This document shows positions 4,101 through 54,914 of a DNA stretch of 64,000 bases, piece after piece. The translations under genes and the position numbers were made by a program. The DNA is from Cyanidioschyzon merolae. Taxonomy: Eukaryota. The DNA is taken from the NCBI GenBank assembly GCA_000091205.1, contig AP006493.2; one strand, written 5' to 3'. Each line of letters opens with the position of its first letter. Within the stretch, counting starts at the first letter, position 1. Under the pieces are notes generated by a model. That model was not told the DNA's origin. It saw only the letters and a list, made by a program, of their open reading frames with translations, and did no database searches.

Positions 4101-4220
4101 CTCGGCATGGGTCAGGCCTGCGCATCTATCCTCAGCGCCGCCTCCTCCTTACAGGAATGCATTGTGGTGCTTGAAGGCTTGCTTCATCGCTCGGTACACG
4201 CACGAGACTGATGCGGAAGG

Positions 4221-12500: not shown

Positions 12501-14777
12501 TAGCAGTGAGCACATGGTGTAGCCTGACTTGCCAGGAGCACGCGCGAAGAATATGCATTTCTTGGTGCTCAATAACGGTGAGCGCGACGTCATCGGGAAT
12601 ACCTTGAACCTGGTGAATGCCCTCCGGGATGCGAGAATGTCTGAATCCAAGCCTCGAGCACTCCAGCCGATGCCCCAAAGCGACCACGACGTCGCTCCGC
12701 ATCGTTTAGGCAACCACGGCCGCGGGACGCCCAGCAGCATTGCCTCAAACGACTGTGGTCAGCAAGGGACCCCATGGATCGCTTGAAGGAAATTGAACAC
12801 CTGTCTATGATACTATCATGGCGCTCTTGGAACGTGATCACGCCCCATGATGAGCGCAAGTCCGTTCTCTGGTCATAGAGAGCGCTCGGGCATTCAGGGC
12901 ATTTGGTGAGGCGGTTCGATCCTGAAGCACAAAAATTTGATTCAAGTCACTGTTCACGTGGCCATGGTAAAGCTGTTCTGAGTGCCACAGACCTGGAAAC
13001 TGCATTGCTCTTGGGTCCGCCACGCCTTCAACATACGGGATAATAGCGTTCTGAAGGCGTTGCACAGAATGTCGCTACAGAAGCGGTGTCGCTGGTGCAC
13101 TGGATATGGACAGCGTTTGTGCACGTGAAAGGAGCCTCCTTCGCCTCATCGCTCTCGGGAATGATTTCGGTTCTACAAAGGCAAGAAAAGTGGGTTCACC
13201 AAATTGTTCGGTGAGTTGAAAGAGGACATTACCGATAAGAGTCGTTGTTTGATGGTGTCATATGGCGCTTGAAATGCTGTGGCGCTCGGAGGCTGCACTC
13301 GTGCTTCTTCGAAGAGAGTGTACAATGAGTTGAGGAACCAAGTCTGCGCGATTCCCATCAATGTATTCAGAACGACATTCACGAATCATGAGCATGCATG
13401 CTCCTTGAAACTGGTAGCGAAGAAGAGTGTGAGACAGTGACGGATGCATACGCTGATGTACGGTACGCTGACAGCGCATCGTGTCGTGATGTAATCGAAA
13501 ATGAGGGGTTCTCGACTGTGTTCTTCCAATGGCAATTATGCGCGCGAGCTCTTTCTGTACCCCGACATGAACGCATCGGCCAACAGCCGAAACTGCATCC
13601 TGCTTCAAGGGCATCGTGAGGCCTTATGTCGAGCGAGGATTCGAGTAAATCGTTTACTGCTCAGTGCGGACATGACGCTGAAACGCCGAGGACTTTCGAA
13701 AGATGAAAATTAGCGTTCAGGAAAGCTGAGATTCGATTATCGCTTGGGCAAGGTACAGAATTCGTATGGATTAGCAGTCCAGATTGGCTGGATCGCCATG
13801 TGCATACACTGGGAAAGATTTTCCTGAGTTACGAATGAACGGTAACAGTGTTCACTCACTCGATATTGCGCCGCATGATGATGCGCTCATTACGTACAAA
13901 AATCTAGGGCGGACGCAAGCGCTCAGCGAACGGAAAGGAATCCTCGCCGAGACATAAGAGCCGTCAGCGAGGAAGCATGAGCTAGTTCGAGCCAGAAACG
14001 CCGCTCCGCTGCATCGGATTCGGCGCTTCCTCGAGCCAAAGCCCTCTGTGGTACAGCAGAGCCGTTTTGTCTCCGTGTGACGACCGCACTGGCGCTGTGG
14101 GAGCTATTGCGGACGCTCATGGCAAGCTCTGCACTGGATTGAACGGAACGAGCGACAAGAATATCCGAGAAGAATTATGGCTTATGGAACTTGGTGGTAG
14201 ATGGAATGATAGATGCCTCACCGCGCGCTGGTACCAAGCGCAGAGTCGGGGAATGCTGGCCTGAATCAACGATTCGCCAAATGAAACCAATTTCGATCCC
14301 GCGCGCCGAAGCAGTGTTTCATATCGTACCGTCATGATCTTCCACGATATTCCTTATTCTTCCAACTTCTTGGGCAAACGGTCATCTCACGTACCATGTA
14401 CATTCTTGTATCTATATGAACTAAATGAAAATATTGGACCTGGACAGGAGCAACCCTCAGACAACGCAGTCACTAAACGGTCTCCTTGGTTCAGTGTTCA
14501 CGAGCGTGTGTTCCGCCATAGTCTGGACCTCGACCAAAGAAACCAGCTTGCTGTACTGCAAACTGTGATCGCCGGAACTCCGGAGTTTAACTAGAATCTT
14601 CTGAGCTGCTTTGAGCGGCAAGGTGGAACTGGTATTCACTGCTCACCGAGGCGAGCCTCGGAGCAAGCTTTCGGCAGGCGGCAGGAAATCTGGCGAACTT
14701 CTCAAGGGCTACCAAAAACCCCGGCTGCGTCTGAAAAATCCAGTGAGACGGCGATAAGCGCTACAGCGCACCGTCTC

Positions 14778-33004: not shown

Positions 33005-33634
33005 GGTAGCCAGTCACTGCACCAAACACTTTCGGAGAGATTTTATAAAACTGGTGATTTTACCGAGCTGTACTGAATGCGCACTGTCAGAGAAGCGAAA
33101 CGTTTGCTGTTCTTTGTGGGATAAACAAATACCTTCCCATAGACGCCTCCTAGTCTTTTTTGACCGGTCGCCTGCTACTAGTCTCAGTTTCGCCCTGTGC
33201 ATTTCGATCCTGAGAGGCTGCCCCTTAAAGTTTGCTCGTCTTCAGCACCGCAAATCTCCTGTTATTGATAGCAGCATGGGAGTCCCGGTTCACGAACTCC
33301 GCGTATGCAGCGCTGCTGGTGGACCTCACCAAAACAAGGATTCCTCGAACTCGCGCGTTCTGTGCCACTAAAGTCTCACCATCGCCCCGTTGGCAAACAT
33401 CACTTTCCTTCTGTCTACTTTCTTTTTCGTCTTCTTCTTGCTCACTTGCTCTTCATCGCTCGATGGTTTGCGAGAGGCAAATTTATTTCGTTTTTCCGAC
33501 AGAAGGCGACATCGGGGCTCCAGGATTTTCGACTCCCATGTTCATAACTTTCCCTTGGATTTCCTATTTCTTCAAATCACCACACCAGTTTATGCCCGCC
33601 AGGTGAGGACCTTCACAGAGCAAGAAGGACTTGT

Positions 33635-34575
33635 GAAAGAGATAATGTGCCCACTGGGACACCATGTGCTTAACGCTTCAGCGATTCGCCCGGTGGAACG
33701 ATCATTACATTTCAGGATACAAAACACTCTTTCGGTTAAGTTGAACCATGGAGCGTACGGAGTAATGAAAGGCGGCTCTACGGCGAGAGACCTGGCAAAG
33801 GCTCGAACGGAAGGGCAATTCTCAAATGCACGGTGTCCAATAGGAGGAGGTCTCCAGATTTCAGGGGAAAAGTCTTCAATGATCCGACGAAGTGGTCGAA
33901 GCTGCTGTTTGAGCCTTCTTTAGACGCCAGAACCGAGGCCACCAATAGTATCTACTGCAGCTAGAACATATGGTGATGTTCTCTTTCGCCTCGAGATCGA
34001 TTGTATATACAACGGGCTCCATGCTCCGCGAATACTCACACATGCTCCGATCGTTTCATTCGAATGACATCTCATCGACTGAAAGAATAAACCGACGTAC
34101 CTGTGCTTCATACGGCTAGTGGCGTTCCGGAAAAGCTATTGCTGCGATTTCGGTGGAGGATGGCCGTGCGTGATCTAGGGCGCTGTTTTTGCGACTACAT
34201 CGCAATGTCTGCAGGACCACGCGAGCTCCCCGCTCAGACACAGAGACGCTTGCGGTGGCTACTATTACGCCTTTTTTCTTCCCGTATGAGGGTCAACGGA
34301 TCGTATTCCATCATTGACTGGAAGCAGTCTTGGAGAATAACGGTTTTGTCGCGGAACGCATGTACTTGTTTCTTTCTTTCATTGTTCCTCAACGATCTGA
34401 GTACTGTTGTATGACTGAACTGAGGGGCGAACGCAGTCCTCCTTGCATTGTTAAGCAAAAAATATTCTCTACAAGCAATTTGTGTACAATCTATATGGTA
34501 CGCTGCGTAGAGATTTGCATGTCCTGCTCTACAGTGCGAAGAAGCATTCTATTTTACGCAGCGGGAGTAAAGCAA
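33635..34575. repeat. Copy 1 of a 941 bp perfect direct repeat. It is an internal segment of the TnpB/Fanzor-like element family.
   Basis: Identical over its whole length, as far as I can read, to 37415-38355 (offset 3780 bp). Divergence begins before 33635 and after 34575. A roughly 80%-identical inverted fragment of the same sequence lies at 54065-54185. Confidence 0.85.
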
Positions 34576-35370: not shown

Positions 35371-36774
35371 TCACTGACGGTCGAGGAGCCTCCGAACTTT
35401 CTGTATGCGTTGCTCCGCGTTCAGTCCGCTGCTACTTCGTTTTTCGATTGGAACGTGCACATCGGCGTCCACCATGTGAGTAAACATCAGTGGTGCCAAG
35501 CCCGCGCACGGCTCGTTTGCAGCTTCGGAGCCCTCATCCTTGCAAAATGGAGATCCGTGCGTGGTCCGACGCAACAGTGCTCCATTGAAGATAACTTTTG
35601 TAAGATCTGCATACCATTGGAGAAGAATTGGACGCAAAATGCCTACAACGGTTGAATTTCTTGAGCATTTTCCCCATGGAGAGTCTCTCTCTAAAGCGTA
35701 ACGCCATGGAGGTTCATTCTCTCCGTAATGAATATTCCAGAGCACCAGCGGGTGCTCTGGAGCTTGGACATACTGGGGTCGTGGATCTATTCTTGGTGAA
35801 CCGTCAAGCCCAAGAAGGCTGTCCACTAGAGAAATGTTCTCTGTGCCCCGACCGATTTCCAAGAGAAGAGCAATCATGAACCTAACTTGATGGTAAAGAA
35901 ATGCCTGGCCTTCGATGGTGAACTCTAAAATGCCACGAGGGAAAAGCGCGCGATAGAACTCATCTTTTGCGAGTTCGACTGTGCATTGCAGAATAACCCG
36001 TTCTGTGTTGCCTTTCGTTGTCTCCGCATCGAACTTGCAGAAATTGGCAAAATCATGTCTTCCGACCATCTTTTTGGCTGCAGCAACCATGCTACAGATG
36101 CCTTCATCGCTAAACACATTCGGCACGAAATATTTGTATGTTCGTGAATAGGCACTGAAACGAGCCGAGAAATCATCCGCCACGGGGGCCCAGGCGTACA
36201 CTCGCACTGATGCAGGCAACTCCCGATTCAGTAAATGTATATAGTCATAAAAGTTAGTCCCCGTGCCAGGTGGAGGGCACCTTACCAAAAGCGATACGAC
36301 TTGGCCAATTGCACTGACACCCTTATCGGTGCGCCCACCACGAGCGTACTGCCAACCTTTTACAGCCCAGGTCTCACCGAACTTCTCTCGGCTGAGAGGC
36401 CTGTTCGGGGACACCCCTGTGGCGCACGTGCCGTCACTGCCAACGAACCAGTGCAAATTGGGTACCAGATTTACCTTCTCTAGCGCATAAAATAGAGCAC
36501 TCTCTACAGATTTGAATGCGATTCCACTAAGCTTCCCCGCCGAAGACGTGCTGAAGTCAGCCGGCTGAGCAGCAAAACCAGAAGGAAACGACCAACCTTG
36601 GTATGCAAGCTTCAACGCTATTTTTCGAACGCCGTACTCTTTGAAGTTGATTTCGCGAGCAGAATTCTTATTACGGGAGCTGCTCCGCTTCAGTCCTAGC
36701 AGTTGCTCCAAACGTGCAGCGTAAGCCTCCAGTTCTGCTCGGCTTAGTTTCGAAAGGTTCTGTACAGCGCTCAT
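35371..36774 (-). CDS. PUS3: tRNA pseudouridine synthase, TruA family (Pus3/Deg1-like).
   Basis: N-terminal coiled-coil, then RKIALKLAYQGWSFPSGFAAQ. The catalytic Asp lies in YARGGRTDKGVSAIGQVVSL, followed by RVYAWAPV. ATG at 36774; 467-aa uninterrupted ORF. Confidence 0.75.
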   Translation of the reverse strand: MSAVQNLSKLSRAELEAYAARLEQLLGLKRSSSRNKNSAREINFKEYGVRKIALKLAYQGWSFPSGFAAQPADFSTSSAGKLSGIAFKSVESALFYALEKVNLVPNLHWFVGSDGTCATGVSPNRPLSREKFGETWAVKGWQYARGGRTDKGVSAIGQVVSLLVRCPPPGTGTNFYDYIHLLNRELPASVRVYAWAPVADDFSARFSAYSRTYKYFVPNVFSDEGICSMVAAAKKMVGRHDFANFCKFDAETTKGNTERVILQCTVELAKDEFYRALFPRGILEFTIEGQAFLYHQVRFMIALLLEIGRGTENISLVDSLLGLDGSPRIDPRPQYVQAPEHPLVLWNIHYGENEPPWRYALERDSPWGKCSRNSTVVGILRPILLQWYADLTKVIFNGALLRRTTHGSPFCKDEGSEAANEPCAGLAPLMFTHMVDADVHVPIEKRSSSGLNAEQRIQKVRRLLDRQ

Positions 36775-36849
36775 CTCGAAGAAGTATACTTGGCTTCAAG
36801 AAAAGAGGATCTTTTGCCGTGATGCCGAAAAATAAGTGTCCCGCAACTT

Positions 36850-38355
36850 CTATAACCAAGTTGTGGAACAAACTGGTCCAAACACGAAATGGTTTCCCTC
36901 CATCCAACGAAAATAAGAAAACAAAGTTGGCTCAGCGAATCGAAAGCCCCTTTCGCAAACACGGAGTAGATTTATATTCACGCGCAGACGCCTCGCAGCC
37001 TTTATCGACCAGCCACGTGCTGTCGGCCTCAGAGTCTCCTTCTGGACTTCCACCCGGAGAGGCTGCCCCATAAAGTTCGCTCGCGTCAGCGCAGCGGGTC
37101 TCGCCTTCTGCACCGCACATCTGCTGATATTGATGGCAGCATTAAAGTCTTGGTACGCGAACTCCATGCATTTATTACTTCTGGATGAACTCACCAATGC
37201 AAGCAGCTCTCGAACTAGTGCCCTCAGTGCCACTTGCTGCTGTGTCAGTTCTTCATGTTTTTCAATCGCGGATGCGCCCCGCTCGCTCTTCTCCACCTCG
37301 ACTATCTGCATTGTGCATCCCGGCACATCCCTAAGATGTTTTATTTTTGAACATGTACGCATTTCTTCTTGCCTTTAGATGACAACTTTCCCGGAGGCAG
37401 AAGAGCTCGTGGAAGAAAGAGATAATGTGCCCACTGGGACACCATGTGCTTAACGCTTCAGCGATTCGCCCGGTGGAACGATCATTACATTTCAGGATAC
37501 AAAACACTCTTTCGGTTAAGTTGAACCATGGAGCGTACGGAGTAATGAAAGGCGGCTCTACGGCGAGAGACCTGGCAAAGGCTCGAACGGAAGGGCAATT
37601 CTCAAATGCACGGTGTCCAATAGGAGGAGGTCTCCAGATTTCAGGGGAAAAGTCTTCAATGATCCGACGAAGTGGTCGAAGCTGCTGTTTGAGCCTTCTT
37701 TAGACGCCAGAACCGAGGCCACCAATAGTATCTACTGCAGCTAGAACATATGGTGATGTTCTCTTTCGCCTCGAGATCGATTGTATATACAACGGGCTCC
37801 ATGCTCCGCGAATACTCACACATGCTCCGATCGTTTCATTCGAATGACATCTCATCGACTGAAAGAATAAACCGACGTACCTGTGCTTCATACGGCTAGT
37901 GGCGTTCCGGAAAAGCTATTGCTGCGATTTCGGTGGAGGATGGCCGTGCGTGATCTAGGGCGCTGTTTTTGCGACTACATCGCAATGTCTGCAGGACCAC
38001 GCGAGCTCCCCGCTCAGACACAGAGACGCTTGCGGTGGCTACTATTACGCCTTTTTTCTTCCCGTATGAGGGTCAACGGATCGTATTCCATCATTGACTG
38101 GAAGCAGTCTTGGAGAATAACGGTTTTGTCGCGGAACGCATGTACTTGTTTCTTTCTTTCATTGTTCCTCAACGATCTGAGTACTGTTGTATGACTGAAC
38201 TGAGGGGCGAACGCAGTCCTCCTTGCATTGTTAAGCAAAAAATATTCTCTACAAGCAATTTGTGTACAATCTATATGGTACGCTGCGTAGAGATTTGCAT
38301 GTCCTGCTCTACAGTGCGAAGAAGCATTCTATTTTACGCAGCGGGAGTAAAGCAA
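36850..38355 (-). pseudogene. Partial TnpB/Fanzor-like element (copy delta). The C-terminal fragment, including the RuvC-III-like motif, is contiguous with direct-repeat copy 2. Reading is broken across frames.
   Basis: Minus-strand ORF 36850-37362 reads ...KIKHLRDVPGCTMQIVEVEKSERGASAIEKHEELTQQQ...NKCMEFAYQDFNAAINISRCAVQKARPAALTRANFMGQPLRVEV. It aligns with the copies at 42.6 kb, 54.5 kb and 57 kb. Homology to copy gamma continues upstream into 37415-37500 in another frame (ILKCNDRSTGRIAEAL versus IMKCNDRSIGRIARPF at 54400). Confidence 0.55.
37415..38355. repeat. Copy 2 of the 941 bp perfect direct repeat.
   Basis: See 33635-34575. The shared sequence begins gaaagagataatgtgcccactggg. Confidence 0.85.
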
Positions 38356-39093
38356 AATCGAGTTGAACGACTATCTGACGCCTACGCAAAGCGATTCCGC
38401 GTACCGTGTATCTGCAAAGTAGCACTTCTTAATGGTAGAGCCGCAATTGAGAACGTTCGGAGTGTTTTCCTGGTTCTGCTGGATGGATTTTTGGTAAACT
38501 ATATTTAATCTTCTAGTGGGAGGATGATTGCGCGGGCAAAACCATATTTTCCAGGATGAGTCGTACTGAAAGAAGCACAGTATTCACTATGCCGGGCGAG
38601 GTAGGTGCTAGTTTGGGTTTGACCTCACGCGATGCGCACAACGGCTGCGGAATACGCACAACTCGATACTGATCGTCGAGTCGGCAAGACTGCAACATGC
38701 TCATGGCTCAGGTCATCCGAAGAGAAACCTCACCATAAATACCGTGTTCATACTTCACATCGTACATAAGAAAAATTACTTTTCAGGCCCTCTACAATAA
38801 ATAAAATTGGATTCCACTTATCGCGTTTATTGAGAGATTTACCGGACGCTTCCGTCGCAAAAAAAAGAAGAGACATAAGAAACTTGACCCACTGTGTAGA
38901 AGGAGAGCAAACACCGCAAAGCCCTGCGAAAACCTCATGCGGTGATGTCGCGCCCTGCTGCGATCGTAACGAAGGCCATTCGTCGCCACGCGCAACGCAG
39001 GGCAAGAGACGGCTTGCGTACGGTGCAGAACACCGAACTGGCTGTGAAGAGGATCTCTTCTTTGTCAGTACTAAAAGGCGTCGCTTTCTGGGA

Positions 39094-40485
39094 ATGGAGC
39101 AGCTTGCCAAGGATCTTTTTGAGATAGGTGCGGTCAAGTTTGGCACGTTCAAACTCAAGTCTGGGATAGCGTCTCCATTCTATGTCGATCTGCGCGTTGC
39201 TGTCTCGTATCCTCGAGTTCTGAGAAGCATTGCGGCTCTGTACCTAGAGTGCTTGCAGGACTTTTCTGGCGCTTTCGACGTTATTTGCGGGGTTCCATAC
39301 ACTGCGCTCCCTTTTGCGACAGCAATGGCTGTGCAGGGAGACTTACCTATGGTTATGTGTCGAAAGGAGGTCAAAGACCATGGAACACGGCGAGTTGTTG
39401 AAGGTGCTTTCACACAAGGCTCTCGTTGCTTAATAATCGAGGACGTTGTTACAAGTGGTTCAAGTATTCTGGAAGTTGTGGGCGCATTGCGCGCAGAGGG
39501 TCTCAAAGTGGATCACGCGATCGTCTTGCTTGATAGGGAGCAAGGCGGGTGTGAGGCGCTTCTCGGCCAGGGAATAGGGCTCCGATCTGTTTTCCGCATC
39601 AGCGACCTCGTTGGGACGCTGCGGAATTTGAACTTGCTTGAGCCGGGGAAGGTGGATATGATTCTAGATTTTATTCGCACGGCCCGCGCAGCATCAGATG
39701 TTAAGCGCCCCGAAACAAACGTTCCATCCGCATTGCCAGTCGCCGCATCAAGTTCTTCCCCGGTGCGAGATCAACTTTACTCAATCGCAGAAAAAAAGAG
39801 AAGCATATTATGCGTTGCGGCAGACGTACAATCGACTAAGGAGCTTCTTGGAATTGCAGATGCAGTAGGCCCCCACATCTGTGTTCTGAAGTTGCACGCC
39901 GATATTATCCAGGACTGGACGACGGACACATCAAGACGCCTTCGAGAGCTCGCGGACAAACACAGTTTCATGCTTTTTGAGGATCGAAAATTCGCTGACA
40001 TAGGAAACACGGTTGTTGCACAGTTCAGCGCAGGCGTACATCGGATCTCTTCCTGGGCGGACATTGTCAATGCACACGCCATCCCGGGCCCTGGACTGAT
40101 TGAGGGCCTGCGCCACGCTTGCGCAATTTCCGGCAGAATGATTGGCCTCCTGTTAGTCGCACAAATGTCCAGCAAAGGGAACTTGATTGACGAGAGATAC
40201 ACTGCTACATGCCTGCGGATGGCCCGCGAAGCGTTTCCGTTCTGTATCGGCTTCATTGCCCAGGAGCGTCTGGACCCGACAGGGAAGCTCTTTGTGATGG
40301 CGCCTGGTGTGCAACTGGATTCAAAGGGCGATCAATTAGGCCAACAGTACAATTCACCACAGTATCTGCTGAAGCGCAAGGGTGTCGACTTCCTTATCGT
40401 TGGCCGCGGTATCTACGGGAGTGAAGAGCCAGCAAAGGCGGCCCAGATGTACAAAGAGTTGTCGTGGAGCGTCCTTCACGGCTAA
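39094..40485 (+). CDS. UMPS: Bifunctional uridine 5'-monophosphate synthase (orotate phosphoribosyltransferase + orotidine-5'-phosphate decarboxylase).
   Basis: The OPRTase N-terminus MEQLAKDLFEIGAVKFGTFKLKSGIASPFYVDLR begins at the ATG at 39094; the track start at 38830 is a TTG. The PRPP motif is CLIIEDVVTSGSS. The ODCase half reads ILCVAADV...CVLKLHADI...FMLFEDRKFADIGNTV...LLLVAQMSSKGNL and ends in a C-terminal barrel. Confidence 0.8.
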   Translation: MEQLAKDLFEIGAVKFGTFKLKSGIASPFYVDLRVAVSYPRVLRSIAALYLECLQDFSGAFDVICGVPYTALPFATAMAVQGDLPMVMCRKEVKDHGTRRVVEGAFTQGSRCLIIEDVVTSGSSILEVVGALRAEGLKVDHAIVLLDREQGGCEALLGQGIGLRSVFRISDLVGTLRNLNLLEPGKVDMILDFIRTARAASDVKRPETNVPSALPVAASSSSPVRDQLYSIAEKKRSILCVAADVQSTKELLGIADAVGPHICVLKLHADIIQDWTTDTSRRLRELADKHSFMLFEDRKFADIGNTVVAQFSAGVHRISSWADIVNAHAIPGPGLIEGLRHACAISGRMIGLLLVAQMSSKGNLIDERYTATCLRMAREAFPFCIGFIAQERLDPTGKLFVMAPGVQLDSKGDQLGQQYNSPQYLLKRKGVDFLIVGRGIYGSEEPAKAAQMYKELSWSVLHG

Positions 40486-40940
40486 TTCCTAATGGGCAGA
40501 AGCAAGCGTCGGCTCCCACAAAGTTCAGTAGAACGGCGGGGGTCAGTTGCCACGAACGCTTTACGTGCGGCATCAAGATGATATTTCATTGCGAATGGAG
40601 TTCGTCGACGTCAGTTGCATCCGCAGAATGCTTCTTTGTTTCGGATATGTCCGCGGCCTGTGCCCGCAACGAATGTTCCTAGAAGTACATTTCACGGCGC
40701 CTTGAACATGTAGTTAAGATAAGCGCTCGAAATCGTCCCTGATTCGGCAGTGACTGTCCCTAGAGCTGGATCCTATGGTTTCTTGACCCTGTGGCTACAA
40801 TATGCGCTCGACACCGTCGAAGATCAGGGAATCGCTCTAGTGTCGGCCTGATTTCCACCAAGTGCACTCTGCACTTTTTGAAATTTTTGGAGGACCCATT
40901 AAAAAAATAAATGCAAGGATTCCTAAGAATAGAGATACAG

Positions 40941-42443
40941 TCAGCTGCTAGGGATTGTGGCGCGACTTTCGCTGACGCGCACTCGTATGATCGAATCGGG
41001 GTACAGCCTTATTGTGTCCCCAGTGTGTAGCGCAGAATTCGGACCGGTCTTTGTGGCCTTCCCCTGCAGTTCTTCCATTACTAAATCCTTGCCATGCCAT
41101 GATTCCACCGTCCCAAACGCTGTCGGATCCGCAGCATACACGTCCACAGGCGTTCGTTGGTAATTTCTGTACACAATCGAGGAGTTCCATATTTCCGCCG
41201 ACCAGCCTCGAACTCGAATCTGGTGCAATTCCGATTCTGTAACGATCGCAAGTCCCGGAAGCATAGCGCGGACTTTTCCGATAAGACGCTCAAAGCACGA
41301 CAGATGTTTTTCGTATTCCTCCAGAGAATACGTAGATCTCATCGCGTTCTGCGCATGCCACATAATGTTGGCAAACTTTGTCGAATTCAGAGTCTTGATA
41401 ATTTCGTTCACAGACTTTTCGCAGTCAAACCCTGGGTAAAATGCATCAAACCGAGGCCGATTCGTGATTACAAGGCCACCATCCATGCGATATACCTTCT
41501 GAACATCTCCGAGGCTGGTGCCGATGAAACCTGCGTACCGCGCGGCATCGGCCAGCCACGGTGTCCACGTATTGTGTGGTGACGAAAGCACCCGAGGCCG
41601 ATACCCCCAAAATGCCCGAAACGAATGCAAACCGCCCTGAATCCACTCGAGAAGATGCTGATGCTCATCGAACCAATCAAATTCAGACCGAAGAGCTATC
41701 TCACTAGAACCGCATACAAGAGAGTGGTTGAAACAAGCCTCCGCTTTGGATCCTGCAATATTTAACTCTCTTAGCCAACGGGACACAGAAAAGTGCGAAC
41801 GACCGTGGTACTCAGGATGCCACAATTCGTTCATATATAGCTTCCTGTAGAGGTCCCGTAGATCGCCTCTGCTGTATGGCGGCCTCGACAGGCCGCCCGC
41901 TGAATCATGCAGCAGGAGCTCGATGTAGCCGCAACGGTCCTGGCGTCCGCTATCCCTGCCGTGGCACGCTACCGCCAGCGGCCGCGAAAGCTTCCTCATC
42001 GCCTCAAAGTCGGGCCCGCCAACGATCCAGTGAGGCGTCAGCACGACTCTCTTTTCGTATGTAACGTCGGCATTTAACCGTTCAAGCAGACTCCCTAGAT
42101 TCTCGAGATCTTCACGGGTCTCGGAAGTCGCCAGTCGGTACCAAAAACCAGCGGGCGCAGTTTGAAGCTCCTCGTGACTAGAAGCGAACGCAATGTCCGG
42201 AAAGATTGGCACAGCGTCCGCCCAGCGTCCCCAGTCATCAGAGGATATTGACAGAAAACAACGCTCTGGCTTGTTCAGAAGCGGCGCTCGCCCGGGACGT
42301 GGCAGATCGAGGGGGTATGGAGGCTTCCCCCGGAAGCGCCAATCCACTCCAAACCGAAAAACTACTTTCAGCAGAGCAAAGACGGCGAGAGCAGCAACAA
42401 GGCGCAGAAAATAAAGATGCACCACCCTGGTGAAAGCAGACAT
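40941..42443 (-). CDS. Type II membrane (signal-anchor) protein with a probable polysaccharide deacetylase (CE4/NodB-like) fold.
   Basis: The N-terminal hydrophobic anchor is LYFLRLVAALAVFALLKVVF. CE4-like motif analogues are SISSDDWG (TFDDG-like), LSRPPY (RxPY-like) and EFDWFDEH (DxxDW-like). ATG at 42443. This is recognition by motif only. Confidence 0.4.
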   Translation of the reverse strand: MSAFTRVVHLYFLRLVAALAVFALLKVVFRFGVDWRFRGKPPYPLDLPRPGRAPLLNKPERCFLSISSDDWGRWADAVPIFPDIAFASSHEELQTAPAGFWYRLATSETREDLENLGSLLERLNADVTYEKRVVLTPHWIVGGPDFEAMRKLSRPLAVACHGRDSGRQDRCGYIELLLHDSAGGLSRPPYSRGDLRDLYRKLYMNELWHPEYHGRSHFSVSRWLRELNIAGSKAEACFNHSLVCGSSEIALRSEFDWFDEHQHLLEWIQGGLHSFRAFWGYRPRVLSSPHNTWTPWLADAARYAGFIGTSLGDVQKVYRMDGGLVITNRPRFDAFYPGFDCEKSVNEIIKTLNSTKFANIMWHAQNAMRSTYSLEEYEKHLSCFERLIGKVRAMLPGLAIVTESELHQIRVRGWSAEIWNSSIVYRNYQRTPVDVYAADPTAFGTVESWHGKDLVMEELQGKATKTGPNSALHTGDTIRLYPDSIIRVRVSESRATIPSS

Positions 42444-42610
42444 AGGTGCCCAACTCTAGAGAGCGTGCTCTCACCCAGGATTCGGGGTTCCAAATGTTTT
42501 CGATTAAAGAACTGAGCGCGTATACGACTGAAATTTAAGAACCGGCCACTCCTGGAAACAAACGCCTTTCGAAAGTCGAACGACGCCAACCGTGTTCAGT
42601 TGTGGCGATC

Positions 42611-44960
42611 TACCTGCCCCAGACAAGATGTTTCCAATTGACGTGCAGACGCCTCCCCGTCTTTTTGGATCGGCCACGCACTACTACTTCCAACTGTTTC
42701 TCATATAGTTCCACTTTGACAGGTTGTCCCATAAAATTCTCTCTTGTCGACTCTGGAGGCCTTCTTTCCATCACCGCACATTTCCTTATATTGATAGCGG
42801 CGTTAAAGTCTCGTTCACAAACTAAATACGTTTCTTGCCATCATTGGCTGTACTTACTAGTGCAAGTGGCCCACGAACTTTCTCCATCCTTTCCATTTGC
42901 TCTTCCGTCAGTGCACCGTTCTTTGCTATTTCCTCAGGGCTCCGCTGACACTTTCCCATCTCAACCCTCTGAAGTGTACAACCCAGCTCGTGGCGTATAT
43001 ACGTTGTTTGAAATTCATCTACAGGTACTGTAACAAAACGCCGTGCACGCTCCTTGTTCACTCTCGTCTTTGGAGCTGGAGTAGTCCCTTTATGGGTCTT
43101 CCAGCGCCCTGCTCCGTATGCTAATACGAGCCTCTGACTTTCATCCTCTTTGAGAGCACTCAACTCATCGAAAAAATTCGCGAACGCCCGCTGCTTCCCA
43201 TTGTATAGATTCATTCGCAAACGAGCCCACCGGCGCTCGGTATACTCCTCCCACAGCGCATCCCAATGCGCAATGCGAACTTCCATGAATTTCCGAAAAG
43301 CGTCAAAGTCCGCTCCTCGGCTCGTCACCTCGCTCAAAGCTTCTAGGTGATCCTTCATTCCTGAATTCCAGCTCTCGATTTTCTTCCTCGCATTCATTAT
43401 ACCCGATTCTCGATAGTATCTCGCTATCGAGAACCTCAGTAGACGCATGTCTTCCCGACGTAAACTACCGTCAGTACCATCTTCCGCACACTTCGGTGCT
43501 GCGATGGTGATGATATTTGTGTTCCCAGCGTCCGCGCCAACGACAAAGTAGTTATGCTGCACTTTCTGTGTCGCTGGATCCGCCTCCTTCTTTTCTTCAT
43601 CCTTCACCGCGTCAAAGACAAGGTCGTTATCCTGCACCTTTTGCATCGCAGGATCCGCTTTTTTTTTTTCTTTTCTTCATGTTTCTTCACGGGCGCAGCC
43701 GAGGGCGGAACTGGACGATCTTTCTTCAACCGCTGATAGTGTACATTCAAGGCTACTCCATCGGTTTCGATCAACCCAGTGAATACCTTTTGTTTGCTGA
43801 CTTTGAGACGTTTGAAAGCGAAGATATTCTTCCAGTACGTCTCACGGGCTTCACCGGAGAACTCCTCCCTGCTAACATTGAACTCTGGACTGATCTCCCT
43901 AATGATGCCATGAAGGATTCTGGAGTCGATACTCACGAAATGTGACTTGAGGTTGCACAACAGAACGCCATTGAAGCGCTACCCCATTAGGACAGCCTCC
44001 CGTCTCTCCCACTCTTCATTTGTCTCTACACTCAGCTTCATTTCCGCCTTGCGTTCGAGCTCTCGGTCCAGAAACACGACATAGCGCAGAATGAGGCGAT
44101 AGTATCTTTCCTTATCTTTTTTCAACTCTGATATCTTTTCTGTTGGATTCGCCAGCCCCAAGACTGTACGGTGCTCTTGTCTAGCCGCACGGATTATAGA
44201 AGCTTCATTCGTGCTCCTGTGTCACTTTTTCTTGTCGACAAATTCGATCTCATCTTCATACTTTCGATCGTTCTTGATGCCACTGATAATCGCCCATTTT
44301 CCTTTGCGAGAGATGCCCGAGTAGAGTGCTAGCACGGCGTGTATCATGAAAAGTTCGAGGTTCACGATCGGTTGGTTCTTCAGATTCGTGAGGTACTTAA
44401 TCGCCCCATAGTCGTAAACATCCGAGTCACCCCTGTATCGGGTACCCTCGAAGCTATAAAAGGCATGTTTTCGTGCAGGGCGTGCACCAGCTCATTTTCC
44501 CTTCGCGCTTCCTCTGTGCCAAGCATCAGGTGACGAATAAAGGTCTTATCGAAAAACTCGTCCGGAATCTCGACCGTTTCCATGTGCGTCACTTCGCGAT
44601 ACACCTCACTCGCCAAATGCATCAGTCCTGACGACGCCTTGACAATACTCTTGGAGTATGACGCAACACGTCTTTCGATAGCGTCTCGCAACTTGTCCCT
44701 GTAGGGATCCTTGATATGTCCAAGAAGAAAGGTTTTCACCACCATCTCGTCGCACAGTTGTCATTCTTGCCGCTTACGACGTAGGGCCTCTCCATTTCGG
44801 TTCTACTTCTCTTCCTTTTCTTCTGGACCTGGTACTGTTTTTTGTTTTCTTCTGGCAGCCAGCGACACTGAGCCTCTAGGATCGTGGACTTGCTCTTCCA
44901 TAACTTTTCTTTTTTTAATTTTTTGAAAAAGAACGCTCTTTTACAGCTTGCGTCACACAC
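42611..44960 (-). mobile_element. Most complete copy (alpha) of a eukaryotic TnpB-like (Fanzor-like, IS200/IS605 OrfB-superfamily) RNA-guided-nuclease element, about 2.3 kb. It is a pseudogene with one in-frame stop and at least two frameshifts.
   Basis: Minus-strand pieces: 44736-44960, 44380-44745, 43979-44161 (ends at an in-frame TAG at 43979-43981), 43604-43960 and 42822-43646. A RuvC-I-like motif reads [15 protein letters not shown], with an earlier echo [14 protein letters not shown] Fanzor-like block reads LVLAYGAGRWKTHKGTTPAPKTRVN...FVTVPVDEFQTTYIRHELGC. After a further frameshift, the RuvC-III motif ERDFNAAINIRKC lies at 42788-42814. The tail ends at the stop at about 42611. Confidence 0.55.
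43556..43692. repeat. Roughly 65-75 bp in-gene tandem duplication inside element copy alpha. It contains an 11-nt T homopolymer (43659-43669) that causes a 1-nt frameshift.
   Basis: Unit A reads ctgcactttctgtgtcgctggatccgcctccttcttttcttcatccttcac. Unit B reads ctgcaccttttgcatcgcaggatccgcttttttttttt cttttcttcatgtttcttcac. Adding one A to the minus-strand A11 run joins ORF 43604-43960 to ORF 42822-43646 in frame. Confidence 0.7.
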
Positions 44961-45618
44961 CGCGAAAATTCACTTGAATGAACTTGCTTGAGGGCTGAAA
45001 CACAATTGAAATGAAAAAGTATTCTTTGCTACAACTTCAATGCAAATGCAACTTGTGTGTTGGAACAACAAGAAAAAGACTGGTTAGGATCGAGTTTCCC
45101 TTCAACGACACCGTGCATGTCGCGTCTCGTGACTGCCTTCTCCCCCAGATGCGCGTATCGAGCGCACCGTATAGGAAGAAAGGCAGAGACTCACGGTTCA
45201 CTATCAACGTTGTAACAGTATCTTCCTCCTCTATGATAAACGTTAAAAGGAGGGCAAATGTTTCCTTATTTTGGAAAGTTTACCATATAGGCGAAAGTTC
45301 CCGCGAGCTGTACGAGTCTGCTGGTGAATGCGGTGTGCGCCGCGCAGTGTACAAAATTCCATGCGCTTCCATGCGCTCAGCTGTGCTAGTAAGTAGAAAA
45401 GTCGTCAGTTACAGAGCACGTGTGTATGCCACTTGCAGATCCTGAAAAGGACAACTTCTTCACATTTTACGTGGGAGATGCAGGTTTAGATCTACTCCAA
45501 GTTATAGATTCTTCAAACCACAGGGTGACGCACCCATTCAATCACAGTCGTGGCTGCGAAAATGCAGCTTAATTGGATGCGATTTCATTGTTGTTCTAGA
45601 GGACTGTAGGCGCGGTGC

Positions 45619-46956
45619 TTATTGTACAGCATCAGGAGCGCGTGATCGGACCCAAGTGGATCGATTGCGTGACGTTCCATTCGCAGTCTCAGATCGAAGA
45701 GCGTCGTGGAATCGAAAACGATTCGATTTCAACAGTTCGTGGAAAGAACCAAACCTTAGATTCCCTTTGGTGCCTGCATACTCGTCCAGCGCACATGATG
45801 GTTCGCGATGTAAGATATTATACAGCGTATCCCGCTGAATAAGATATCGCTCGGGGCCAGCGGCAGTGGCGATGCGACGCATCTCACGCGGTGTCATAAC
45901 TTGTCCGTGTTTAGCACCAGCCGCACTCGAGATAGATTCATTCATCAGCGTGCCCCCAAGATCGTTGCAACCAGCCTGGAGAAGCCGAATAGTGCCTTCG
46001 GGTGATTCTTTCGGCCATGAACATTGAATATTGCGTATGCAATCACCCAGAACGATCCTTGATACAGCGTGCACCAAAAGGCGCTGTGCAGGTGATGGTC
46101 CATCTCTGCACTCTGCAAGGTATCGCGGATCATGTTCCCGACACATCGGTGCCTCCCAGTGAACAAACCCAAGCGGAACAAACTCTGTAAAGACTCCTAC
46201 CTCATGTTGGAGAGCTCGTATGGTGAGCAAATGCCGCGCGATATGTGCCGGAGTCTCTACGTGCCCAAACATAACAGTCGCAGTCATGCGCAAACCTGCG
46301 CTCAAGCGAGCTTCCTTTGCTATTCGAATCCACTGGGAAACAGTTATCCGCCCGGGAGATATCTTATCACGGATCTCTTGTACAAGAATTTCTGCAGCAG
46401 TTCCTGGAAGCGAATCCACACCGGCATCACGCAGTAGTTTCAAATATTCGTTTGTCGTCACGCCCCGAAGCTGAGCTCCGTAAAGCACCTCCTCTGGAGA
46501 GAAAGCATGCAAGTGAATGTTTGGAACCGCTTCCTTAATGCACGAAGCGACTCGCGTGTACAAGTCCGCACTTGCGCCGGGCGGCAGACCAGCTTGGACG
46601 CAAACTTCGGTCGCGCCCAAGTCCCGTGCCTCGCGTGCTCTCCTCGCGATTTCTTCAAGTGGCAAGTAATAAGTTTCAGACTTATGCATGCCCCTTGGGG
46701 TCCTGCTGAAAGCGCAAAATCCGCAACGCTTTATACAAGCGTTCGTGAAGTTAATATTCCTGTTTATTACAAAGCTCACCGCATCCCCAGTTTGCTCTCG
46801 GCGCAGCGCATCTGCTCTTTGAATAACTTCAGCAACATCATTTGGATCCTCCACGGAAAGCAGCGTAGTAACATGTTCTACTTCAAGCCTCTTTGGAGCC
46901 CTCCTCAGGAGCTCACGAACAGATGGCAAGCTCGTCCTCAGTACCCTACAGGGCAT
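45619..46956 (-). CDS. Radical SAM enzyme of the CofG/CofH (FO synthase) and MqnC/MqnE family.
   Basis: The SAM cluster motif reads NINFTNACIKRCGFCAFS. It is followed by the TIM-barrel-type radical SAM core (EVCVQAGLPP, IHLHAFSPEEV, TAAEIL) and a C-terminal extension. ATG at 46956; 445-aa uninterrupted ORF. Confidence 0.6.
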   Translation of the reverse strand: MPCRVLRTSLPSVRELLRRAPKRLEVEHVTTLLSVEDPNDVAEVIQRADALRREQTGDAVSFVINRNINFTNACIKRCGFCAFSRTPRGMHKSETYYLPLEEIARRAREARDLGATEVCVQAGLPPGASADLYTRVASCIKEAVPNIHLHAFSPEEVLYGAQLRGVTTNEYLKLLRDAGVDSLPGTAAEILVQEIRDKISPGRITVSQWIRIAKEARLSAGLRMTATVMFGHVETPAHIARHLLTIRALQHEVGVFTEFVPLGFVHWEAPMCREHDPRYLAECRDGPSPAQRLLVHAVSRIVLGDCIRNIQCSWPKESPEGTIRLLQAGCNDLGGTLMNESISSAAGAKHGQVMTPREMRRIATAAGPERYLIQRDTLYNILHREPSCALDEYAGTKGNLRFGSFHELLKSNRFRFHDALRSETANGTSRNRSTWVRSRAPDAVQ

Positions 46957-47061
46957 CTTTTGTAAGGTTAATATCGTCGATTCAGTGATACGATCGCCTC
47001 GCCCGTCGCTCCCATCTGCAAACCTTGCGCGGTTCTACCTTCCACCGCGTTACGGTTACGG
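46957..47061. promoter_or_regulatory. 105 bp divergent spacer, a presumptive bidirectional promoter, between the radical SAM (CofH-like) gene and lycopene beta-cyclase.
   Basis: Head-to-head ATGs at 46956 (-) and 47062 (+). Confidence 0.35.
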
Positions 47062-50128: not shown

Positions 50129-50581
50129 ATGCTACTGAAAGCCGCTCGACTGTGGCATTGCGTCGTTTTTGGAGCCAGCGTCCAGCGTTCGTCACGAAGA
50201 GTAGGTCCAATAGCGGAATACTCACCTCGTCCTCGCTGTCCTGAGGACTGGCCTATAGCCCAGTTCAGCAGGGAAGCGGAGGAACTTTTGCAGCAGCTTG
50301 GAGATCAAGTCTATGACACCTTTCAGGGTAGGACGGACGTCGACGTTGAGTTTTCTCAAGGCGTTCTGACACTTAGGTTTCCGAACGGAACTTTTGTCTT
50401 GAATACGCAGACTCCGAATCGACAAATATGGCTATCGTCTCCTCTAAGCGGACCAGCTAGGTACTATTATGATCTTGATACAGGAAAGTGGCGCAACTCT
50501 AGAGACGATCATATGCTTGTGGATCGCCTTCAGAAAGATCTCGCCGTGTTTACGGGCTGCAACATTCAGTTAAATCTTTAA
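50129..50581 (+). CDS. FXN: Frataxin (mitochondrial iron-sulfur cluster assembly protein) with an N-terminal presequence.
   Basis: The presequence is MLLKAARLWHCVVFGASVQRSSRR. The mature domain reads EELLQQLGDQVYDTF...DVEFSQGVLTLRFPNGTFVLNTQTPNRQIWLSSPLSGPARYYYD...KWRNSRDDHMLVDRLQKDL, matching the conserved frataxin fold sequence. The track ORF began at a TTG at 50027; the first ATG is at 50129. Confidence 0.8.
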   Translation: MLLKAARLWHCVVFGASVQRSSRRVGPIAEYSPRPRCPEDWPIAQFSREAEELLQQLGDQVYDTFQGRTDVDVEFSQGVLTLRFPNGTFVLNTQTPNRQIWLSSPLSGPARYYYDLDTGKWRNSRDDHMLVDRLQKDLAVFTGCNIQLNL

Positions 50582-51540: not shown

Positions 51541-52680
51541 TACTTTCCAAATTCGAATATCCAGCTCATTGTCAATGTTGGATCGCGTCAATCAACGGCG
51601 GTCAAAGTGTACGCAGCTGAGAATGGAGTTCTGCTGTTACTTGTGCCAGCATGTGCTCCCCCGCTCGATGCAGTTGAAGGCATCTTCTCTGTTGCCGAAC
51701 GCAGATTTGCGCTCACAGTTAAGCAGAGGAGTCGTTCGCGTCTGCGACAACTTTTGTCGACAAATCACTCTCTACATTTAGCCGCCTTGAACTGCTGTAC
51801 TAGTTGTCTACTCAAGGGAGACAGGTACCGGAAAGCGTGTCCGTCCATAGATACTTTGCGACGGAGATTGCGACGGATATGTGCTTGAGGAAGTTCAAAT
51901 ATATACCTTGAAAAAAGAGGAGGGTTTCAATCGAAATTTGCACACAAAGCATCTTAATCCCAAGTACGGATATGGAGACGGAATACATTGCCCAAATCCA
52001 GGCTATGCCGCCAACAAGAAGAGAAGCCGATGAAGGAAACGTTCTTATTGCGCGAATATGAAGCACGCAAGCGACTTCGTGAAGAGCATATGCCGAGCGC
52101 GTTCATGAATTCTCTTTTACTAGGAGCAAATTGAGAAAAGTTCACAGGCACCATCCCTCCGATGAAAAACAAATCTGCATATATTCTGTGGGAACCAGGT
52201 ATGAGTCGCGAAACGATACACATTAGCATGCATTCAAATTATATGAACAGAGAGATTCTATGGTGCACGTGATTCTAGAGTTGAACCCCGCCATGCCCCT
52301 TGCAATACCCAGGAAATCAAGATGACAGGCTCAAAGACCGTACAGGAACGCAGATGAAGCTGATCAACTTTGCTGGACTCGGTATTATCGTGAATTGAGC
52401 ACTGCGAAGACCAAGAGACCTACCAGCAATAAAAATGACGGCTTCAGGATCCATTTCGACGATCTGAGCAACTCATGGAGGAGAGCGGATTGCCTCGACC
52501 GTTTCATTCAGAAAGTTAGTGAGCGAGCAAATGGCTTCTGCGGACGATCTTGCACAGGCGTTTGAAACACCGCGCTATCTTCGCCCGCGGTGTCAGCATT
52601 ACGAAGGCCAGAAGCGCGCTTACGCCAACTTCTTCGATATTTTGAAAGTAAATGATCACGATGTCGCTTGGTATCATGTT

Positions 52681-53174
52681 AGCCGATGGCGCTGAGCATG
52701 CGCGAACACTCCAATGCTGCTGTCCTGCTCCTTCGACTGGAGCTTACAACTAGTGCGAGAACTGATTCTTCATCATGACCATCGATTTGCTCAGGACGAT
52801 GCACACGCATCCTGAGCACAGGTGCACGCTGAAACAGGCAGAGAAAAAACGCGTGAGATGGAGGCGGATGCATGAGCTTGTGCAGGGTAAGCTTTCCGAG
52901 CATCAGATGTCGATGCAGTCGAGGTTTCGAGGCTCGCTACAGTGTGCTTTCACCACCAACCAAGCGTGCAAGCAGTTTCCGCGTCGAGACTTGAACGCCA
53001 CGATAAACATCTGTAGATTCCTAGAAGTGCGAGCGCGTCCAGCAGATTTGTGTCGAGTGAATGTGTGATGTAGTTGTGTTGTACTCAATGAGCGCATTAC
53101 ATGGAAAGCGGAAGACTTTGGATAATATAGTTTGGTGACTAGGAGAGATTCATTGCATGCACGCCTGAAGCAAC
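52681..53174 (+). repeat. Copy A of a 494 bp inverted repeat (about 99.8% identical to 56835-57328). It contains the 3'-terminal fragment of a TnpB/Fanzor-like gene (copy epsilon).
   Basis: ORF 52775-53068 reads ...HPEHRCTLKQAEKKRVRWRRMHELVQGKLSEHQMSMQS...LQCAFTTNQACKQFPRRDLNATINICRFLEVRARPADLCRVNV. One mismatch to the partner was seen, in the conceptual peptides (SRFRGS versus SWFRGS). The boundaries were located by base-by-base comparison of the reverse complement. Confidence 0.85.
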
Positions 53175-53999
53175 CCAATATTCTTCGTTGCGCTGATCAG
53201 ATTAGCAAGGCCGGAGCAATGTGTACGTATATCAGGAAAGATTTTGCGAGGCGATTGTTGAACGATAACTGCGTTCAATTATTCGACATTACTGAGTGTA
53301 GGGCTAACCCACCGAGCATTTTTCTTTCCATGCGCTACTCTGGTTACTGAACCCTGTCCTTTGCTGCTCAAGCAAAGCTCTTTGCTCTATGGTGTAGCAG
53401 ATAACTTCCGAGTACGCTCCTCCAATCTCTAAATTTTCGGGTAACGATCCTACCGTCTTGAGCTTTTTGTTCACTTAGCGCCAAATTCTTTGAAAAAACG
53501 ACTCTATCCGCGGATTCTTCAAGGTTTCTCTTTAATGTGGCCAATAGAGTTTTCCAACTCAAGTTTGTTTCACTCTCGCTGCAGTGGATGCCAGGAGATG
53601 CAACTCTCTATGCAGCGCAACGTATAGATTGTAGACGAATTGCTTCTAGGGTACATTTTTTACTGAACGGCGGAAGGAAGACAGCGTACATCCATCAGTT
53701 CAGTCACACCGCAGTACTCAGATTACAGATGATTAATGAAAGAAGGAAAAATACAGGTATATGCCATCCGCACCAAAAACCGATATTCTCACAGATTGCT
53801 TGTGGCCAACGGTAGGAAACGACCCGTTGATCACCTTAATGAGAGCAAAAGCGACACCAGAAGCCGCGACACCCGTCTCTGTTTCTGAACAGCTTGTTTA
53901 CGTGGTCCTGAAAGCACTGGGATACAGCCGCACAAGAATGTTCAGTTTCACGCATTTTCATCTCCCACCGAAATCGCAATGACAGCGTTCCTAGAACGT

Positions 54000-54914
54000 C
54001 GTGATCGGTATGAAGCACAGGGAGGTCGGTTGCTTTTTTCGATAGATGAGAATTCCATCGGACGAACCGGTCGGAGCGAACATGCGTATTAACAGAGCAT
54101 GGAGCCCGTTGTATATACAATCGATCTCAAAGAGAACGACGATATAATTTGTTCTAGGCGCAGTGGATACATTTGGTGGCTCTAGTTTTAACTCCCCGAG
54201 AAGGCGCATAAAATCCCTCCCACTTTTTTAAATTATTGAAGACTTTTCCTCGACGCTAGGCGACGTCCTTCTGTTGGCCAACGTAGCGTTTCACCGGTTT
54301 CCTTGTGTTCGAGTTTTGCTGATTCTGTCGGGGTAGAGATGCTTCTAATTCCTCCCTACTCTCAGTAGCAGAACCTCATTGAAGAAATGTTTTTTATCAT
54401 GAAATGTAATGATCGCTCCATTGGACGAATCGCTAGACCATTCAGCACCGTAGCGCCGGGGCATACTTCGTCCTTGTTCCGCAAGTGATTCTCGCTCCAG
54501 GAAGAGATTTAGCTGAGGTCATGAACAAGTGCGTTCATTTTCAAGAAATTGCACCTAAGGAATGAGCTGCGGAGCTCATTTCAAAAGGTCGAGAGGGGGA
54601 GAAGCCAGCAGGGCGCTTCGGAGATAGGAAAGCACAGGGAGCTGACAGGGCAGCAAATGGCAATGAGGGCAAGGGATATAGGAATATTTGCATTGTCGCG
54701 TTCCAGCAACGGCACTGCAAGCATTGAGTTCGTGAACTTAGGCTCCAAAGCCGCCATCAATATCAGACAGTGTGAGGTATTGAAAACGAGACCCGCGGAG
54801 CTGAGGCGAACTTACTTTGTGGGGCGGCCTCTCAGAGAAGAAGTGTACAAGTTGAAGCTCCAGCCGATAGCATTCGGCCGGGCAAAACACTGGAACGCGT
54901 CCGTGCGTGGGTAA
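54000..54914 (+). pseudogene. Partial TnpB/Fanzor-like element copy gamma (C-terminal half, frameshifted).
   Basis: ORF 54549-54914 reads ...GASEIGKHRELTGQQMAMRAR...GSKAAINIRQCEVLKTRPAELRRTYFVGRPLREEV. The upstream 54390-54480 region is homologous to the reverse complement of direct-repeat copy 2, and 54065-54185 is about 80% identical to the reverse complement of 33930-34040. Confidence 0.55.

Follow-up and report, generated by a model that had tools for sequence, protein, structure and literature searches.

The 64 kb of contig AP006493.2 analysed here (the whole stretch, called the window below) carry two decayed copies, alpha and delta, of a Fanzor-type transposable element, each lying upstream of a host gene that points the same way. 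The sequence-only reading had placed the ends of two Fanzor-like remnants immediately before host start codons and on the same strand, and both positions and orientation are borne out. The delta open reading frame (ORF; 37362..36850, minus) closes with TAG at 36852-36850, which leaves a 75-nt gap to the ATG of Pus3 (36774-36772), and the final reading frame of alpha closes with TAG at 42612-42610, 166 nt before the ATG of a gene for a 500-aa protein (42443-42441). All four features (4/4) are on the minus strand. On alignment both ATGs are true starts, because the orthologues from Cyanidiococcus align from residue 1. The genes and element parts at the two sites are:

35371..36774, minus strand: Pus3, tRNA pseudouridine 38/39 synthase (Pfam PF01416, E=2e-24); 62% identical, from residue 1, to Pus3 of Cyanidiococcus yangmingshanensis, and 49% identical to the Cyanidium caldarium protein
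36850..37362, minus strand: delta ORF, 170 aa; Fanzor C-terminus at ~36976-37362 (motif YQDFNAAINI), read-through at 36850-36975
36973..38306, minus strand: copy delta, a fragment of 1.3 kb from a diverged Fanzor1 subfamily (repeat map)
40941..42443, minus strand: gene for a hypothetical protein of 500 aa that is conserved in red algae and has a hydrophobic N-terminus; 67% identical to its Cyanidiococcus orthologue from residue 1
42444..42560, minus strand: host spacer of 117 nt from the alpha right end to the ATG, locus-unique, holding TTAAATTT and TATACG
42552..45323, minus strand: copy alpha, a decayed, 5'-truncated Fanzor1 element of ~2.8 kb (repeat map and 3'-flank alignment)
42559..42669, minus strand: conserved 3' tail of alpha, a candidate scaffold of an omega-RNA; the final codons and the stop at 42610 fall within it
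42561..42587, minus strand: terminal hairpin of the alpha tail, GGCGUC-UUCGA-cuu-UCGAA-GGCGUU (RNAfold)
42610..42819, minus strand: last reading-frame piece of alpha, with RuvC-III motif CERDFNAAINI (translation; tblastn match to intact relatives)
42822..43646, minus strand: 274-aa ORF piece of alpha with RuvC-I and RuvC-II (VDEFQTT), 75-79% identical to relatives
44380..44745, minus strand: N-terminal ORF piece of alpha, 121 aa, 44% identical to the N-terminus of the 699-aa relative P0242

The Fanzor-like identity proposed for the two remnants stands, since profile, fold and tblastn comparisons all mark both as TnpB/Fanzor-derived. The label 'CE4-like', which had been attached to the 500-aa protein, is without support: Pfam holds no family for the protein, and its homologues are red-algal hypothetical proteins.

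Assignment to Fanzor1 rests on a diverse alignment obtained from a representative search. A profile of 40 diverse relatives (A2) matches the Fanzor1 proteins of Parasitella (PpFz1, 9cf0; E=2.9e-20) and Guillardia (GtFz1, 9cer; E=1.5e-5). A shallow alignment was insufficient: searches of Pfam and the PDB with the single alpha sequence, or with a shallow profile of close relatives, returned nothing, and AlphaFold run on the shallow alignment reached a predicted local distance difference test score (pLDDT) of 31.7. Fold comparison, covering the WED, REC and split RuvC domains, was made on the intact relative P0242, not on alpha or delta themselves. Its model has a pLDDT of 84.6, and the best seven PDB matches are all Fanzor1 (SpuFz, PpFz and GtFz; E ~1e-15, template-modelling (TM) scores 0.52-0.74). 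The RuvC catalytic triad (D421, E592, D658) is invariant in the A2 family alignment. All three RuvC motifs are retained in alpha (GADAGN, VDEFQT and RDFNAAINI) in a broken reading frame, and delta retains only the third (QDFNAAINI).

The family is abundant and worn. A search of 5.8 billion proteins gave 221 close relatives, all unnamed and metagenomic, and an exhaustive profile search raised the number of relatives to 1424, many of them 600-740 aa long; at least 331 family loci were confirmed in metagenomes. Identity to the nearest copy is 80-91%, so that each surveyed copy is at least 9% diverged from its closest relative, and an ORF of at least 600 aa is kept in one of 46 unique copies and broken in the other 45. 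The lengths of other copies range from 2.7 to 3.9 kb. Alpha and delta are pseudogene remnants of this multi-copy Fanzor1 family, and neither can encode a nuclease. The sole long intact ORF among the 46 copies (734 aa, L023:~900-3108), whose right end faces a convergent ORF 685 nt off, marks its copy, to judge from its sequence, as a candidate active Fanzor1 of a hot-spring alga.

A described element of this kind is CMe-1A of Cyanidioschyzon merolae, which is present in ~150 copies of ~3 kb that are ~80% identical to their consensus and have no terminal inverted repeats (Bao and Jurka, PMC3627910); the placement of CMe-1A elements relative to genes is not reported there. The family in the window shares with CMe-1A a Fanzor1 protein, a high copy number, a length of ~3 kb, copies ~80-90% alike, few intact ORFs, and neither terminal inverted repeats nor a recognisable target-site duplication. 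It also has a 5' region in common with other short repeats, which recalls how CMe-1A and TE-N2_CMe are related in C. merolae. The family fits the CMe-1A type as far as the published description goes. Its host too is a red alga of the Cyanidiophyceae, with a compact nuclear genome and proteins 61-67% identical to those of Cyanidiococcus, and exact matches to the window occur in contigs of several JGI metagenomes.

By the repeat map alpha spans 42539-45323 and is similar to up to 78 of 80 related loci. Its 3' limit was set by alignment of 3' flanks, and its 5' limit, at ~45323 and 295 nt from the CofH stop codon, by divergence from class-1 relatives. The coding sequence is spread over three frames and has three in-frame stops. 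No terminal inverted repeats or target-site duplication were found at the alpha ends, and a search for a TnpA gene found no other Pfam-recognisable ORF in alpha or delta, the remaining ORF at 45011-45445 (+) being left unscanned. That ORF, of 144 aa, runs antisense to the 5' region of alpha and is called as a gene in metagenomes.

Beyond the coding homology, the 3' flanks of 56 copies stay ~80-90% conserved for 85-95 nt and are random thereafter. Conservation stops just after a terminal hairpin, and the sequence beyond is locus-specific: the first 9 nt show a weak, A-poor T-G-T/G-T-G bias, past which the flanks are unique to each locus. RNAfold predicts the hairpin, of 8-14 bp, in 34 of 38 copies, and it comes in two variants, CGTTCGA/TCGAACG and CGTTTTTC/GAAAGACG, with differences on both arms. 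In an alignment fitted to the covariance model, 78.8% of cells are paired versus 34-47% with slid partners, and 14 pairs are changed on both sides versus 8.6 in shuffles (2 of 500 reach 14), a modest excess. A structure drawn by hand on a MAFFT alignment gave no excess covariation, and RNAalifold on the MAFFT tail alignment, in which the two hairpin variants are out of register, gave no meaningful consensus. The folding energy of the alpha tail is unremarkable (z = -1.0), the tail has no match in Rfam, and searches for tRNA genes or Rfam families as possible targets or RNAs found none. The structural evidence for a tail RNA is moderate. SpuFz1, the Fanzor of Spizellomyces punctatus, uses a 75-nt scaffold and a 14-15-nt guide that are transcribed across the right end of the element (PMC10432273). 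By analogy, a conserved non-coding stretch that closes with a hairpin and precedes a variable flank has the layout of a Fanzor omega-RNA scaffold with its guide, for which the tail is a candidate.

The alpha tail is complete: it matches the nhmmer family profile with E=8e-32 and the covariance model R1 with 111.4 bits, the sole such match in the window. The right end lies at 42561-42552, and the hairpin ends 117 nt before the host ATG. The proposal that the guide-RNA scaffold regions at the 3' ends of both elements coincide with host 5' space is supported for alpha as far as this position goes. It fails for delta, because the end of the delta ORF is accidental read-through and delta has no tail. 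Directly after the terminal hairpin the same sequence, TTTCCAGGGGT, is found in five copies (alpha, at 42547-42560, L021, L044, L059 and L043); it may be either the longer terminus of a subfamily or a preferred target sequence.

The coding remnant of delta amounts to the C-terminal ~130 codons. All blastn alignments of delta to its relatives stop at 36966-36986, and a wider set of delta-type copies adds at most a weak subfamily similarity of ~55 nt that reaches ~36930. Because similarity to other copies ends there, the last ~41 codons of the delta ORF are, by alignment, accidental read-through into non-element DNA, and the ORF stop at 36850 does not mark the end of the element as had been supposed. 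With the profile of the alpha-type tail, nhmmer matches delta over model positions 1-32 only. No covariance-model match was found in delta or in B or F, two delta-type fragments elsewhere in the window, and the three share no similarity past the point where delta's alignments end. On this comparison delta comes from a diverged subfamily that has no tail of the alpha type. The sequence GCGGGACAC, at 36846-36838 (minus), lies ~65 nt upstream of the Pus3 ATG in the window and in Cyanidiococcus (L096), and apart from it the two upstream spacers are unalignable. GCGGGACAC is a possible conserved promoter element, and because it also stands upstream of Pus3 in Cyanidiococcus the region proximal to Pus3 looks native.

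The comparison with orthologous loci that the sequence-only reading had proposed was carried out. The two closest sequenced relatives, Cyanidiococcus and a second, are without the element at either site, and no Fanzor similarity was found in their orthologous regions. The spacer between CofH and the 500-aa gene is 3176 bp in the window versus 534 and 722 bp (CofH to the 499-aa gene) in the element-free relatives, a difference that, judged on sequence, shows alpha to be a simple insertion into this spacer; the host spacer that remains around it, 295 + 117 nt, is of the same order as the relatives' spacers. Aligning the spacers with the empty sites of Cyanidiococcus and of the second relative was unsuccessful: except for the one short motif upstream of Pus3, the DNA between the genes has diverged too far. 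The gene orders, with frataxin annotated in one of the two relatives only, are:

Both relatives: Sigma(+), Pus3(-), Coq4(+), [frataxin(-)], LycCyc(-), CofH(+), 499-aa(+), UMPS(-), NAA35(-), RAD23(-)
Window: Sigma(+), [B], Pus3(-), [delta], UMPS(+), 500-aa(-), [alpha], CofH(-), LycCyc(+), frataxin(+), [E, F, G], NAA35(-), RAD23(-)

The block of UMPS, the 500-aa gene, CofH, LycCyc and frataxin (38830-50581) is inverted relative to the relatives (L011/L096, L012/L097), and the outer genes, Sigma and Pus3 on one side and NAA35 and RAD23 on the other, keep their orientation. Fanzor fragments sit at both breakpoints: delta exactly at the left one, and F, its inverted homologue, at the right. The inversion would have arisen by recombination between these inverted copies. 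In the relatives Coq4, the ancestral neighbour of Pus3, stands between that gene and frataxin; the window does not contain it. For delta only, these observations allow that its position beside Pus3 was made by the inversion, which would have brought the fragment from elsewhere, and not by insertion. This is possible, if on the whole rather unlikely. If recombination took place within the two inverted copies, the part of delta adjacent to Pus3 stayed where it was; delta and F are now only 69% identical, so the event, if homologous, is old; and either gene order may be the ancestral one.

Whether the placement of alpha and delta is typical was judged from the family at large. The survey covered 80 related loci, with ORFs of at least 150 aa called from the first ATG symmetrically on both strands, Fanzor-like and repeated ORFs removed, and copies de-duplicated by their flanks. 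With right ends mapped by nhmmer in 46 unique copies, 29 of them look towards the ATG of a co-oriented ORF at a distance of up to 600 nt, with no intervening repeat, and 9 towards a stop codon within ~700 nt (29 versus 9, binomial p=0.0017). A looser survey of 61 unique tails found the next host ORF co-oriented in 41 and convergent in 12 (p=8e-5). The gap between right end and ATG varies from -8 to 577 nt; its median is ~100 nt, versus 424 nt in a simulation of random insertion into element-free spacers. The ORFs downstream represent 53 different genes with ordinary domains (RING, WD40, POT1, phycobilisome, Macro, PHD, aldehyde dehydrogenase). Where both neighbours were callable, the spacers occupied were distributed as follows:

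Divergent spacers: 12 copies
Tandem spacers, copy co-oriented with the genes: 7 copies
Tandem spacers, copy opposite to the genes: 3 copies
Convergent spacers: 3 copies

A null drawn from element-free spacers was set aside: it is skewed (37 convergent versus 13 divergent) because the loci were chosen for containing elements, and its expectation of 0.31 was left unused and 0.5 kept. The two co-oriented cases alone would be expected about one time in four (chance ~0.25), and within the window copy B (33141) is a counter-example, its tail being directed at the sigma-factor gene's stop codon. Significance is reached only family-wide. The bias of right ends towards the 5' sides of genes is real. 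An insertion preference for gene 5' ends, raised as one possibility by the sequence-only reading, agrees with the 29 start-facing versus 9 stop-facing ends.

From these results it is judged probable that alpha and delta are old, inactive Fanzor1 remnants of the CMe-1A kind, and that a position with the right end 100-200 nt upstream of a co-oriented start codon is the usual resting place of their family. Copies would accumulate in spacers that hold gene 5' ends, and would have their right end on the side of the gene. Integration would favour the promoter-proximal part of such spacers, and long-term selection would then filter the insertions. A Fanzor copy would have to be transcribed out through its right end to yield a guide RNA; aimed at the 3' end of a gene, it would send antisense transcription into that gene, and placed upstream in the same orientation it would add sense read-through only and could borrow the gene's terminator. 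The native proximal promoters of both host genes seem to survive, as suggested by the TATA-like sequences on the alpha side and by GCGGGACAC, shared with Cyanidiococcus, on the Pus3 side.

Several points weigh against this interpretation. It is probable that all the loci surveyed trace back to a single alga, or to a few that are near relatives, sampled in a handful of metagenomes. Copies in tandem spacers split 7 to 3 (p=0.34), so that an orientation preference as such is not proven and the excess is largely explicable by spacer type. Stop-facing right ends are also close to their genes (17-186 nt in six of nine), and closeness to genes may partly reflect short spacers. Left ends are ill-defined, the 5' modules being mosaic, which makes the count of 17/19 copies closer to a gene on the right-end side unreliable; the test of right-end against left-end distances was discounted because of this uncertainty. 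Calling ORFs from the first ATG can make gaps seem shorter than they are; the same calls underlay the null simulation. Every copy is old, and because of this insertion preference and selective retention are inseparable; a split of copies by age, as a means of telling targeting from selection, failed, there being no young copies in the sample. Finally, the window stands further from both relatives than these do from one another, so that for the inversion either gene order may be the ancestral one.

Retention could also act alone, with integration random and purifying selection having removed the copies aimed at gene 3' ends or elsewhere. Every surveyed copy is old enough for this (at least 9% diverged, 45/46 ORFs broken), and past the right end there is only the weak bias of ~9 nt described above. 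Selection alone does not predict right ends so near the ATG as a median of ~100 nt, disturbance of promoters being expected instead, and the recurrence of TTTCCAGGGGT after five right ends is a hint of a site preference or of a terminus that extends further. That retention suffices is considered unlikely. Another reading is that the family has an active, strand-specific preference for the 100 promoter-proximal nt before start codons, perhaps by integration into single-stranded DNA exposed by transcription or by tethering to the machinery of transcription start. This is a tentative idea, somewhat more doubtful still. If true, guide RNAs read from the flanks would show a systematic complementarity to the promoter DNA or 5' leaders of genes, and there would be a natural link between a eukaryotic RNA-guided nuclease transposon and gene 5' ends, with a route to regulators like the bacterial TnpB-derived repressors.

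Promoter donation, in which the 3' end of the element supplies a transcription start or regulatory input on which the host genes now depend, had been suggested from the arrangement of the two sites. In ten surveyed copies the gap between right end and first ATG is 52 nt or less, which leaves little room for a separate promoter, and by analogy with SpuFz1 (PMC10432273) the element would have to be transcribed across its right end for a guide RNA to be made. First-ATG calls may understate such gaps, however. The 117-nt spacer of alpha retains TATA-like sequences, the 75 nt upstream of Pus3 retain GCGGGACAC in common with the element-free Cyanidiococcus, the tail is G+C-rich without a recognisable promoter element, and delta has no tail at all; exaptation of this kind is improbable. 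Coincidence, by which surviving insertions in a compact genome must lie by some gene, are co-oriented with it half the time and are uninformative as two cases, is very improbable: two of two co-oriented is a result of chance ~0.25, in the window B is directed at a stop codon and F, E and G at other fragments, and element-free spacers are short (medians 440-700 nt), yet the family-wide excess (29 versus 9 and, in the looser survey, 41 versus 12) stands against it, and convergent spacers are no shorter than divergent ones, so that spacer length does not explain the bias.

The preferred reading, that the start-facing position is the family's usual resting place, can be set beside what is known of related systems. 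One of the closest is SpuFz1 (PDB 8GKH; PMC10432273), which has the same fold (TM 0.63-0.74) and the same RuvC D/E/D triad at a sequence identity of 13-15%. SpuFz1 elements carry 30-nt inverted repeats, whereas none were found here, and SpuFz1 has been characterised biochemically and structurally whereas the present family is known from sequence, with alpha and delta pseudogenes. The bacterial IS200/IS605 elements with TnpB and omega-RNA (for example ISDra2) likewise combine a RuvC nuclease gene with a 3' end and right end that encode a guide-RNA scaffold, and likewise lack inverted repeats and target duplications. They differ in that no TnpA (Y1 transposase) gene was seen in or beside alpha, apart from the unscanned ORF at 45011-45445, and in that the host here is eukaryotic and the protein, of ~700 aa, has Fanzor1-specific insertions.

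Enrichment directly upstream of genes is well known for Tf1 of fission yeast, P elements, and mPing and other miniature inverted-repeat transposable elements, where it likely reflects a 'safe haven' or open chromatin. The present copies resemble these in being enriched directly upstream of genes. Those elements, in contrast, whose integrases or transposases are known, belong to the long terminal repeat retrotransposons or the cut-and-paste DNA transposons, and in the family studied here a bias in the orientation of the right end towards the gene is suggested, not proven. No report of gene-proximal Fanzor insertion was found in the searched literature. On that literature, enrichment at gene 5' ends, known for other classes of transposon, is apparently unreported for Fanzor elements, and the survey, which is suggestive but not decisive, gives a first quantitative hint that a Fanzor1 family settles on the 5' side of genes.

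These findings bear on annotation as well. The ORFs at 36850-37362 and 42822-43646, called as genes in metagenomes, are transposon debris, and part of the 170-aa 'protein' of delta is probably translated promoter DNA. Cyanidiophyceae are a class of red algae known for hot, acidic springs. With Fanzor copies at both breakpoints of the inversion, such elements may shape gene order, and perhaps regulation, in these compact genomes. The intact 734-aa gene, together with the candidate ~90-nt guide-RNA tail, may be of interest as a tool to those who seek heat-tolerant, compact nucleases.

Searches by tblastn with window fragments and intact relatives located seven related pieces in the 64 kb, which with their extents in the repeat map are listed here, followed by a block common to B and delta:

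13129..13650, plus strand: copy A, a fragment with distant similarity to Fanzor (~30% identity); a RING-WD40 gene in the same orientation lies 1.1 kb downstream
33141..34526, minus strand: copy B, a fragment of delta type with its 3' end towards the sigma-factor stop codon (33004); tblastn piece 33140-33356
36943-37368, minus strand: tblastn piece of delta
42589-44745, minus strand: tblastn piece of alpha
52486..53065, plus strand: copy E, a diverged Fanzor fragment (tblastn)
53592..54880, plus strand: copy F, a delta-type fragment inverted relative to delta (69% identity over 1.3 kb); tblastn piece 54540-54887
56944-57782, minus strand: copy G, also a diverged Fanzor fragment (tblastn)
37415..38355, minus strand: a 941-bp block in delta, 100% identical to 33635-34575 in copy B

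The 941-bp direct repeats of B and delta bracket Pus3, and the 3' tails that adjoin them are only ~67% alike. This sharp boundary between an identical block and diverged tails suggests recent gene conversion, or possibly an artefact of assembly. A perfect inverted repeat of 497 bp shared by E and G (52681-53177 and 56832-57328) brackets F and 3.6 kb without long ORFs.

The family shows further variation of its own. Its 5' parts are a mosaic in which at least four unrelated modules, each common to several loci, are fused to one core, and the modules meet the core at one and the same point, ~430 nt upstream of the ETVVK codon (L016-L095; alpha 44751-45323). Upstream of RuvC-I, alpha (43532-43672) and the relatives P0001 and P0005 hold a 25-residue peptide repeat, of which members of the family have from two to seven or more copies. 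Local clustering as in the window recurs in L035, L038/L039, L043 and L044, where two or three copies per contig lie in the same orientation 3.0-3.9 kb apart, some neighbours being separated by a single short host ORF. Outside the recognised Fanzor coding fragments, two further stretches of the window, 14027-14238 and 3983-4106, are similar to 5-9 related loci, the former lying between copy A and the RING-WD40 gene.

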